From Scenedesmus sp. PABB004 (lineage: Eukaryota), in assembly GCA_014905635.1 (NCBI GenBank), contig JABVCE010000008.1:558001-622000 (forward strand): a DNA stretch of 64,000 bases, in the 5' to 3' direction. A program made the translations under genes and the position numbers. How positions within the stretch are numbered: position 1 is the stretch's first letter; the number at the start of each line of letters is the position of its first letter. This document shows positions 37,246 through 38,851 of the stretch, piece by piece. The notes beneath the pieces are model-generated. The model was not told where the DNA came from, ran no database searches, and saw only the letters and a list, made by a program, of their open reading frames with translations.

Positions 37246-38851
37246 CTACCGCCCACGCTGCTGCTGCGCGCGCAGGAGCACGAGCGCGGCCGCCGCGCCC
37301 GCCGCGGCCGCGCCCGCCGCGACCGCGAGCAGCACGCCGCCGCCCCCGGCCGCACCGCGCGTGCTCTGGCCAAAGCGCACGCCCTCCTGGAACGCAACCT
37401 CCCGCGACACCGTGCGCTCCAGCGCCGCCACGGAGCCCCGAATCTCCAGCAGCAGCCTGCCGCACGACAGGGGCGGCCGGGCCGTGTCAGCGCGTGCGGC
37501 GCGTGCGGGGCATGCGGCGCGCGGCGCGCGGCGCGGCGCGCGCACCGATTCGTCTCGCGCCGCGCCTGCGCCGCCGCGCGCAGCTCCAGCAGCAGCGCGG
37601 GCAGCACGTCGCCGGGGCCGAGTATCTCCTGCGCGTCGTAAAACTCCTCCTCGGCCGGCTCGGCAGCGGCGGCAGCGGCAGCCGCCGCCGCGTGCGCGCG
37701 CGCGGGCGGCGCCGGCGCCGCGCGCGACACCAGCGCGCGCGCGTCAGCCACGAGCGCCGCGCGCGGCGCCTCCTTGGGCGCCTGCTGCGACGGCGGCGGC
37801 GGCCCGCCCGGCGCCTGCTGCTGCTGCTGCTGCTGCTGCTGCTGCTGCTGCTGCTGCTGCTGCTGCTGCTGCTGCTGCTGCTGCTGCTGCTGCTGCTGCT
37901 GCTGCTGCTGCTGCGCCTGCTGCGCCTGCTGCTGCTGCGGCTCGTGCGCCGGCGCGAGCCCCGCCCCCGCCGGCGCCGGCGCGTCGAGCGCCGCGCCGCC
38001 CGCCGCGTTGTTGAGCTCGCGCAGGCGGGCCTCAACGTAGCCCGTCATAAACTCCACGTACTGCCCCACGCTCTTGCTGGCCTGGTCGGCCATGAGCGCC
38101 TCGACCGTGCTCGTCATCGGCCACGGCACGCTGCACGCGACGCGCACGCGCACGTCGATCGCGACGCCGCCGGCGCCGTCGCCGCGGATCGTGAGCTCCG
38201 CCGCCGTGCTGAGGCTCTTGGCGACGGAGAGCTGCGCGGCGCGGCACGGGGCGGGGCGCGCGCGAACGCCTCGGCGGCCGCCGGCCCGCGGACGGGCGCC
38301 CCCCGACGGCGCCGCGTCGGTCGCCTGCGCCGCGTCGGCCGCCCGCGCCGCGCGCACCTGCACCACGGGGACCGACACTATGCGGATGGTGTCGTCGTCC
38401 AGCCACGTGAGCGTCTGGGTCTCCTTGATGCGCATCGGCTCGGAGCCTGCGGGCAGCGCCCGGCGTCGGCCGCCGCAGCTGTGTCCGCGCCGCTGCCACA
38501 CGGCACCGCCGCGCCGCGCCGCGCCGGCTGCTCACCCAGGAAGCGCTTGACCGACGCTGGGATGGCCATCTCCAGCGTGAATGCGACCACGCGCACCGAC
38601 GCCGGCGACGCGAGCGGGAGGCTGCCGCCGTCGCCGTCGCCGCCGTCGCTGGCACTGCTGCTGCTGCTGCCGCCGTCGCCCTCGCCCTCGCCGCGCGGCG
38701 CGGGCTGCCAGGGCCCCACCTCCACGCTGTCGTCGGCGTTGACCTCGCGGTGGAAGCGCTCGATCGCGCGCGGGTCGGCGCAGGCGAGCGCGTGGAAGTC
38801 GTGGACCGAACAACCCGCCAGCCGCGCCGCAAACTCGAGCTCCTTCACCAT
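37246..38851 (-). CDS. VASt (StART-like) lipid-transfer domain protein with an FFAT motif and C-terminal tail anchor, 433 aa
   Basis: Exons 38851-38536, 38446-38358, 38231-37546 and 37456-37246 total 1302 nt. VASt-like pattern FHREVNADDSVEVGPW..RVVAFTLEMAIP..MRIKETQ..IRIVSVPV..VRVACSVPWPMTSTVEALM, then EEEFYDAQE, and a terminal VLLAVAAGAAAAGAAAALVLLRAQQQRGR. Confidence 0.75.
37815..37913 (-). repeat. About (CAG)33 coding polyglutamine in the VASt protein linker
   Basis: Perfect CTG run on the plus strand. Confidence 0.95.

Follow-up and report, generated by a model that had tools for sequence, protein, structure and literature searches.

The closest described relatives of the protein reported here are the LAM/Ltc proteins of yeast (Ysp2/Lam2 and Lam4) and the Aster/GRAMD1 proteins of mammals, in which a GRAM/PH-like domain lies N-terminal to a VASt domain and a single membrane helix sits at the C-terminus. 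To our knowledge, all VASt proteins studied so far (yeast Lam and mammalian Aster) are anchored in the endoplasmic reticulum (ER) by this C-terminal helix, and they reach the other membrane via GRAM. A second arrangement is found in ACBD5 and ACBD4, peroxisomal tail-anchored partners of VAPB that tether their organelle to the ER (PMC8759595, PMC12263615, PMC5499832). In these proteins, an N-terminal lipid-binding domain is combined with a FFAT motif in a disordered region and with a tail anchor that leaves most of the protein in the cytosol. Here, we describe a predicted gene whose product shares its lipid-binding domain with the first group and its layout with the second. It lies at 38851–37246 on the minus strand of a 64,000-nucleotide stretch of Scenedesmus sp. 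PABB004 DNA (contig JABVCE010000008.1, positions 558,001–622,000 of the forward strand; hereafter the window) and comprises four exons with an open frame of 433 amino acids. Judged from its sequence, the encoded protein is a conserved, uncharacterised variant of the LAM/Aster lipid-transfer proteins with a layout like that of ACBD5. Its predicted features, from the N- to the C-terminus, are:

38007–38851, minus strand: VASt-type helix-grip domain, residues 1 to about 210, split by introns 1 and 2
38594–38704, minus strand: Gly/Ser/Asp low-complexity insertion in a loop of this domain, about residues 50–86, absent in orthologues
37815–37942, minus strand: CAG repeat (period 3, 42.7 copies by Tandem Repeats Finder) that encodes the polyglutamine (polyQ) run in the linker
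37626–37652, minus strand: FFAT motif with acidic leader, EEEFYDAQE, residues 329–337; core EFYDAQE, residues 331–337
37360–37607, minus strand: conserved membrane-adjacent helix, about residues 344–396, spanning intron 3
37273–37335, minus strand: C-terminal membrane helix VLLAVAAGAAAAGAAAALVLL, residues 405–425
37249–37272, minus strand: basic tail RAQQQRGR, 8 residues with a net charge of +3, followed by the stop codon

An initial annotation of this locus had listed a VASt-like domain, a polyQ/Ala linker, the motif EEEFYDAQE (37652–37626), a helix and the tail RAQQQRGR, and all of these are present where it had placed them. The algal protein resembles LAM and Aster proteins in its homologous domain, which is predicted to adopt the same fold, and in its single C-terminal membrane helix. 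By contrast, it lacks a GRAM domain and begins directly with the VASt domain, it carries a conserved FFAT motif, and the tail that follows the helix is short and basic. Whereas LAM and Aster proteins reach out via GRAM, the algal protein would, as we propose, reach the ER via VAP. VASt domains also occur elsewhere in the green lineage: the plant proteins VAD1, BAGP1 and C2-GRAM-VASt combine VASt with GRAM and/or C2 domains (Khafif et al. 2014, PMC4082322), whereas members of the algal and fern family contain VASt alone by Pfam.

In layout and in proposed action, ACBD5 and ACBD4 come closest. They are not homologous to the algal protein, however, as they carry an acyl-CoA-binding domain in place of the VASt helix-grip domain. 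The FFAT core of ACBD5, VYCDSME, is a weaker, phospho-regulated motif (PMC8759595), whereas the algal EFYDAQE is near canonical. The initial annotation had instead likened the protein to STARD3 and MIGA2, a comparison that we replace with the one to ACBD5 and ACBD4. STARD3, MIGA2 and PTPIP51 each combine a non-ER anchor, an FFAT-type grip on VAP and a lipid-transfer module, which in STARD3 is a sterol-directed helix-grip domain of the START type. They differ from the algal protein in being held by N-terminal or multi-span anchors rather than by a predicted tail anchor; their motifs are phospho-FFAT motifs with S/T at position 4, where the algal motif has D; and their domains are START, TPR or other domains rather than VASt. 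All three are named as FFAT proteins in PMC7705450.

The family to which the protein belongs was assembled from an orthologue. A search with the exon 2/exon 3 frame returned one protein, P0001 of Tetradesmus obliquus (373 amino acids, automatically named 'VASt domain-containing protein'). Upon comparison of P0001 with 1.84 billion representative proteins by phmmer, we obtained 131 matches at E ≤ 1e-3, 60 of them at E ≤ 1e-10; many of the 131 are fragments from short contigs. An alignment (A1) was then built of 53 long members picked by hand, with apparently truncated proteins left out. A word-index search with this alignment retrieved only 5 proteins and was evidently dominated by low-complexity words. 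Names were looked up for 30 relatives, and fern relatives were added by word-index search. The named members comprise seven chlorophytes (Tetradesmus obliquus, Chlamydomonas eustigma, C. schloesseri, Myrmecia bisecta, Helicosporidium sp., Haematococcus lacustris and Pyramimonas parkeae), two streptophyte algae (Mesostigma viride and Chlorokybus atmophyticus) and three ferns (Adiantum capillus-veneris, A. nelumboides and Ceratopteris richardii), all annotated as 'hypothetical protein' or, automatically, as 'VASt domain-containing protein'. The fern proteins (P0130 and P0148–P0152) keep the full layout, with FFDA behind an acidic leader, the membrane helix and tails such as RAKRQQ. The predicted VASt domain, FFAT motif and tail anchor are all conserved from prasinophytes to ferns. 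No seed plant appears among the named relatives, most relatives being unnamed and no dedicated seed-plant search having been made; the family may have been lost in seed plants. A literature search, outside which most subscription journals lay, found no description of a family that combines a GRAM-less VASt domain, a FFAT motif and a tail anchor, which agrees with the initial annotation, to which no such contact-site lipid shuttle was known from algae. In passages of Gatta et al. 2015 (PMC4463742), FFAT is mentioned only for other lipid-transfer proteins.

The composition of the window calls for caution in reading any gene from it. At 78.6% G+C over positions 1–64000, extremely high for a nuclear genome, the window contains 391 stop-free frames of at least 100 amino acids across its six frames, a consequence of the high G+C. 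Because open frames are abundant in all six frames, an open frame alone is weak evidence, and the model could in principle be an artefact that joins exons of separate transcripts or includes a last exon that is not used. The gene was modelled as follows:

37246–38851, minus strand: whole coding region, ATG at 38851, TAG at 37248–37246, 4 exons, 433 amino acids
38536–38851, minus strand: exon 1, 316 nucleotides, residues 1–105 plus 1 nucleotide; donor CTGG/GTGAGC
38447–38535, minus strand: intron 1, 89 nucleotides, GT..AG
38358–38446, minus strand: exon 2, 89 nucleotides
38232–38357, minus strand: intron 2, 126 nucleotides, GT..AG; in frame, without stops and without a counterpart in orthologues
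37546–38231, minus strand: exon 3, 686 nucleotides, encoding the linker and the FFAT motif, preceded by the second half of the VASt domain and followed by the first part of the helix
37457–37545, minus strand: intron 3, 89 nucleotides, GT..AG
37246–37456, minus strand: exon 4, 211 nucleotides including the stop, encoding the remainder of the helix together with the membrane helix and basic tail

Every intron is bounded by GT..AG and the frame is restored at every junction. Moreover, two orthologues, P0001 and the transcriptome-derived record P0136, run through all three exon junctions without a break, tail included. Junction 1 (VKRFLG/SEPMRIKE) is unbroken in P0001 as VKRFVGAEPIRIKE, junction 2 (VSVPVVQ/LSVAKSLS) as VSIPIVQISLAKSLS and junction 3 (ETNR/LLLEIRGS) as EANRLLLSIKDS. 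The spliced protein matches the family profile end to end with an E-value of 7.2e-65 (for a search space of one sequence), and its motif and tail fall into the family columns. The frame of exon 3 has the composition of coding sequence, with G+C by codon position of 0.80/0.65/0.92 (0.92 at the third position against 0.65 at the second). Intron 2 can be read through in frame without encountering a stop, but this stretch is absent from the orthologues, which identifies it as an intron; if retained, it would add 42 Ala/Arg/Gly-rich residues within the VASt sheet. We conclude that the gene is real and that continuity with the orthologues and with the family supports the predicted four-exon model, which leaves the artefact extremely improbable.

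The assignment of the N-terminal domain depends on these relatives. When the exon translations of the window were compared separately with Pfam, exons 1, 2 and 4 matched no family and exon 3 gave polyQ-driven noise only, for example TFIIA and VPS13_N; the read-through of exon 2, intron 2 and exon 3 likewise matched no family. The VASt identity hence rests on the orthologue and on the family profile. The window domain aligns to profile positions 5–244 with 171.8 bits, and 103 of the 176 residues aligned to P0001 are identical. A phmmer search of PDB sequences with P0001 alone found nothing significant (best E 0.14). The profile of the 53 relatives matches solved VASt domains, namely GRAMD1C (6gn5; E 6.4e-7), three Aster-C entries (E 7.7e-7 to 1.2e-6), and Ysp2/Lam2 (5yqq) and Aster-A (6gqf), both at E 1.6e-4, before the next match, an unrelated one at 7e-3. 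Pfam VASt (PF16016) is detected at E ≤ 0.01 in 32 of the 53 relatives (best 3.1e-13), and the nearest clusters in the ESM Atlas are VASt (0.91, 0.91 and 0.90). Five near-invariant residues of the family, R54, P65, G73, E81 and Q83 in P0001 numbering, are identical in Aster-C.

The predicted structure points the same way. An AlphaFold2 model of P0001, computed with alignment A1, has a mean predicted local distance difference test score (pLDDT) of 83.4, rising to about 97 across residues 1–170, and consists of a strand, two helices, a six-stranded sheet and a long C-terminal helix. Its top Foldseek match is Ysp2/Lam2 (6cay; E 2.9e-8, template modelling score 0.81, root-mean-square deviation (rmsd) 2.8 Å), followed by Lam4, GRAMD1C and Aster-A. 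With VIA-align, Aster-C (Z 17.5), Lam2 (17.4) and Aster-A (17.4) lead, and Aster/Lam domains fill 11 of the top 12 rows, the twelfth being the PRELI-like carrier 4xhr (Z 16.6); the Aster/Lam matches reach Z 16–17.5 at an rmsd of 2.4–3.1 Å over 153–167 residues, and other Bet v 1-type folds score Z ≤ 15.6. From the profile matches and the modelled fold, we assign the domain to a divergent VASt/StARkin helix-grip type closest to the sterol-transfer domains of Aster and Lam; the initial annotation had called it VASt-like.

DUF2505 (PF10698), which like VASt belongs to the Bet v 1-like clan, was considered for the same region, as P0001 scores 26.5 bits over residues 8–166, just below the cut-off of 26.9. 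We rejected this identity because DUF2505 is matched by 9 of the 53 members as against 32 for VASt, and the structure matches are VASt. The VASt domain begins at residue 1–5 in the window protein and in most full-length matches, and Pfam finds neither a GRAM domain nor the ACB family in any of the 53 relatives. We also searched seven minus-strand frames at 38378–40288, up to 1.4 kb upstream, for a GRAM or other domain and found no Pfam family; this bears out the description of the protein as GRAM-less. Four further frames flanking the gene likewise gave no Pfam family.

The segment that follows the domain is a linker composed of Ala, Pro and Gln plus the polyQ run. The underlying CAG tract is almost pure and counts about 43 units; since the Gln run is much shorter in Tetradesmus and in P0136, the tract has expanded in this lineage. 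Within this otherwise unconserved linker, alignment A1 reveals a sole conserved island, the FFAT motif. We scored it with the weight matrix of Di Mattia et al. 2020 (Table EV4 in PMC7705450), in which 0 is ideal and 0–3 is the range of partners, after setting D/E at position 4 to 0 for the conventional motif; with the resulting function, we recovered the value of 2.5 that these authors give for a worked example. For the window motif, AEPAEE-EFYDAQE-ILGPGD, the score is 1.0, a value reached by none of 200 shuffles of the protein, and 40 of the 53 aligned relatives score 3 or less. Across the alignment, the motif takes the form E-[FY]-[FY]-D-A-x-[ED], which is the FFAT consensus EFFDAxE: F or Y occupies position 2 in 47 of the 53 members and position 3 in 41, D position 4 in 50, A or C position 5 in 37, and D, E, S or T position 7 in 45. 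In the ferns, the motif reads [GRC]FFDA[EAQ][EQ] and follows an acidic leader in all six proteins. In P0001, the motif (residues 279–285) lies in or beside a segment with pLDDT < 50 (residues 265–282) between two helices, a position expected of a linear motif.

At the C-terminus, the membrane helix has a mean Kyte-Doolittle hydropathy of 2.26 over its best 19 residues, and the eight top 19-residue hydropathy windows of the whole protein all fall within residues 402–427. Its counterpart in P0001 is modelled as a helix (residues 354–372), and 17 of 31 residues of the anchor region are identical between the two proteins. A tail helix is present in 52 of the 53 members of A1, followed by a tail with a median length of 8 residues and a median net charge of +3; the charge is +2 or +3 in 44 of the 52. 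Under a stricter helix rule, an uncharged C-terminal helix was found in 48 of the 65 relatives of at least 250 amino acids, and 46 of these 65 have a FFAT score of 3 or less after residue 120. The conservation of motif and tail, which the initial annotation had suggested checking in chlorophytes, extends to the ferns.

Such tails offer a hint at the host membrane. Plant tail-anchored proteins of the outer mitochondrial membrane carry a dibasic signal (Marty et al. 2014, PMC4154396), defined as two basic residues, adjacent or one apart, 0–4 residues from the C-terminus in a tail of 3–8 residues that follows a moderately hydrophobic helix (PMC4154396). The window tail fits the expanded form of this motif with its terminal R-G-R and its length of 8, and the P0001 tail RQQSRK fits as well. 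Our best single guess for the host membrane, based on the tail, is therefore the mitochondrial outer membrane, with the plastid envelope, the peroxisome and the ER as alternatives. The membrane helix itself is present at the C-terminus, and the composition of the tail argues rather against the ER.

Together, these features suggest a mechanism. The C-terminal helix, together with the short basic tail, would insert post-translationally into the outer face of a non-ER organelle, so that the remainder of the protein faces the cytosol; as in tail-anchored proteins generally, everything N-terminal of the membrane helix is expected to be cytosolic. The FFAT motif in the disordered linker would bind the MSP domain of an ER VAP/VAP27 and thereby bridge ER and organelle, and the VASt domain, held on a long flexible polyQ/Ala linker, would shuttle lipid, most likely sterol, between both membranes. 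A motif that targets the ER is most readily explained on a protein located elsewhere, which argues for this inverted topology, and the basic tail points to a non-ER anchor in the same direction. In the nearest matches with a bound ligand, this ligand is always a sterol or sterol analogue, which makes sterol the most likely cargo. According to PMC8005810, VAPs occur in all eukaryotes, and plant VAP27 works with partners that bear FFAT motifs or bind lipids (PMC11255254, PMC11631713); the scanned frames of the window contained no MSP-domain gene. We give an even chance to the general proposal, that is, a tail-anchored VASt protein that bridges a non-ER organelle to ER VAP and carries lipid. The more specific version, an 'inverted LAM' in which a VASt sterol carrier sits in the mitochondrial (or plastid) outer membrane and reaches the ER via VAP, is tentative, and we rate it below even. 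The interpretation in the initial annotation is thus partly supported: its architecture holds, while we infer its mechanistic core, namely the non-ER anchor and host membrane, the VAP binding and the sterol cargo.

Several observations weigh against this proposal, and some of them lend themselves to other readings. Taken by itself, P0001 stays below the curated Pfam cut-offs for VASt (21.6 bits, cut-off 27) and for DUF2505 (26.5 bits, cut-off 26.9), and the fold was computed for this orthologue, not for the window protein itself. FFAT scores are poor (above 3) in 13 of the 53 aligned relatives, and only 35 of the 65 longer relatives have both the motif and the C-terminal helix, a set in which many are short-contig fragments and several failures are plainly cut or mispredicted at one end. 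The [FY][FY]DA motif might be a docking site for a partner other than VAP, or a structural element, which would leave a lipid binder without an ER bridge; position 1 is often non-acidic in relatives (E in 20 of 53), and their leaders average only 2.2 acidic residues per six. We consider this quite improbable, as the consensus of the column is the FFAT consensus itself, the motif sits in a disordered and otherwise unconserved linker, and the 40 relatives scoring 3 or less lie in the range of true VAP partners (PMC7705450). Only 22 of 55 relatives satisfy the dibasic motif strictly, rising to 34 of 55 once the length of the tail is disregarded, and the rule is permissive, having been tested in Arabidopsis and tobacco cells and not in algae. 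The window helix, at 2.26, is also fairly hydrophobic. Since the studied VASt proteins are ER-anchored, homology alone favours an ER anchor, and the domain is indeed closest to those of the ER-anchored Lam and Aster proteins. In an ER-anchored, LAM-like protein, the FFAT motif would bind VAP in the same membrane and concentrate the protein at VAP-rich contacts, from where the VASt domain would reach any membrane close by; protrudin is an ER protein that binds VAP in just this way. We nevertheless regard an ER anchor as unlikely. ER tail-anchored proteins have neutral or acidic tails, unlike the basic tails of this family; an ER-targeting motif would be redundant on an ER resident; and no second targeting module (GRAM, PH or C2) is present that could set the other membrane, although the strict mitochondrial motif is missing in 33 of the 55 relatives.

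The identity of the cargo can be questioned separately, with the same layout and tethering retained. Identity to the sterol-bound Aster/Lam structures is only 14–18%, and the family consensus is unlike Aster-C before the conserved F, where Aster-C reads DVPYHDYF. The best VASt matches lead by just 2 Z units over Bet v 1-type folds whose ligands are very different, the PRELI-like phospholipid carrier stands within the top rows, and the 9 members that match DUF2505 too add to this uncertainty. The protein may thus carry a glycerolipid, ceramide, quinone or carotenoid-type isoprenoid, or act as a lipid sensor, a reading that we hold to be possible if rather doubtful. Against it, every top-matching VASt domain with a solved ligand binds sterol or a sterol analogue, and the five near-invariant residues shared with Aster-C are kept.

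The best-conserved part of the protein is the membrane-adjacent helix, in which 34 of 53 residues are identical to P0001. The window and Tetradesmus proteins share the pattern ...NRLLL.I..S...ERT...E.AFQEGVR.GQ, and the matching P0001 helix (residues 287–341) is modelled with pLDDT 91–96. Such conservation suggests a role in binding a partner or in self-association beyond the tether model. A homodimer prediction with two copies of P0001 residues 284–345, run without controls or alignment, scored 0.02 and counts neither for nor against such pairing. With the family profile, the helix region also matched VAMP2, syntaxin and viral coiled coils weakly (E 0.007–10); we dismissed this as similarity common to coiled coils.

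The delivery of lipid, and of sterol in particular, to the mitochondria and plastids of algae and plants is poorly understood, and VAP27-ORP2A is the only candidate named for sterol at ER-chloroplast contacts in passages of the review PMC12096540. The family described here offers a compact candidate with one sterol-type lipid domain, one near-canonical ER-docking motif and one tail anchor. If the proposed mechanism is true, it would be the first 'inverted LAM' and would provide the green lineage with an ER-to-organelle sterol route of its own, apparently missing from seed plants. The VASt module would then serve contact sites in two opposite arrangements, which bears on how such proteins evolve by swapping targeting parts. 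With members in Chlamydomonas species and in Ceratopteris, the family is open to studies of localisation, VAP pull-down and gene knock-out.

Elsewhere in the window, a 1908-codon open frame at 17857–23580 on the minus strand has coding-type composition (G+C of 0.94 at the third codon position) and matches no Pfam family at E ≤ 0.001. A coding-type frame at 1983–2903 on the plus strand matches Pfam FA_hydroxylase (E 2e-26), a superfamily to which sterol desaturases and methyl oxidases belong; the frame is 35 kb away from the VASt gene, and we propose no connection between the two. Further frames match the FAD-binding domain of DNA photolyase/cryptochrome at 31177–32760 on the minus strand (E 3.1e-16) and leucine carboxyl methyltransferase at 44278–45159 on the plus strand (E 9.8e-9).

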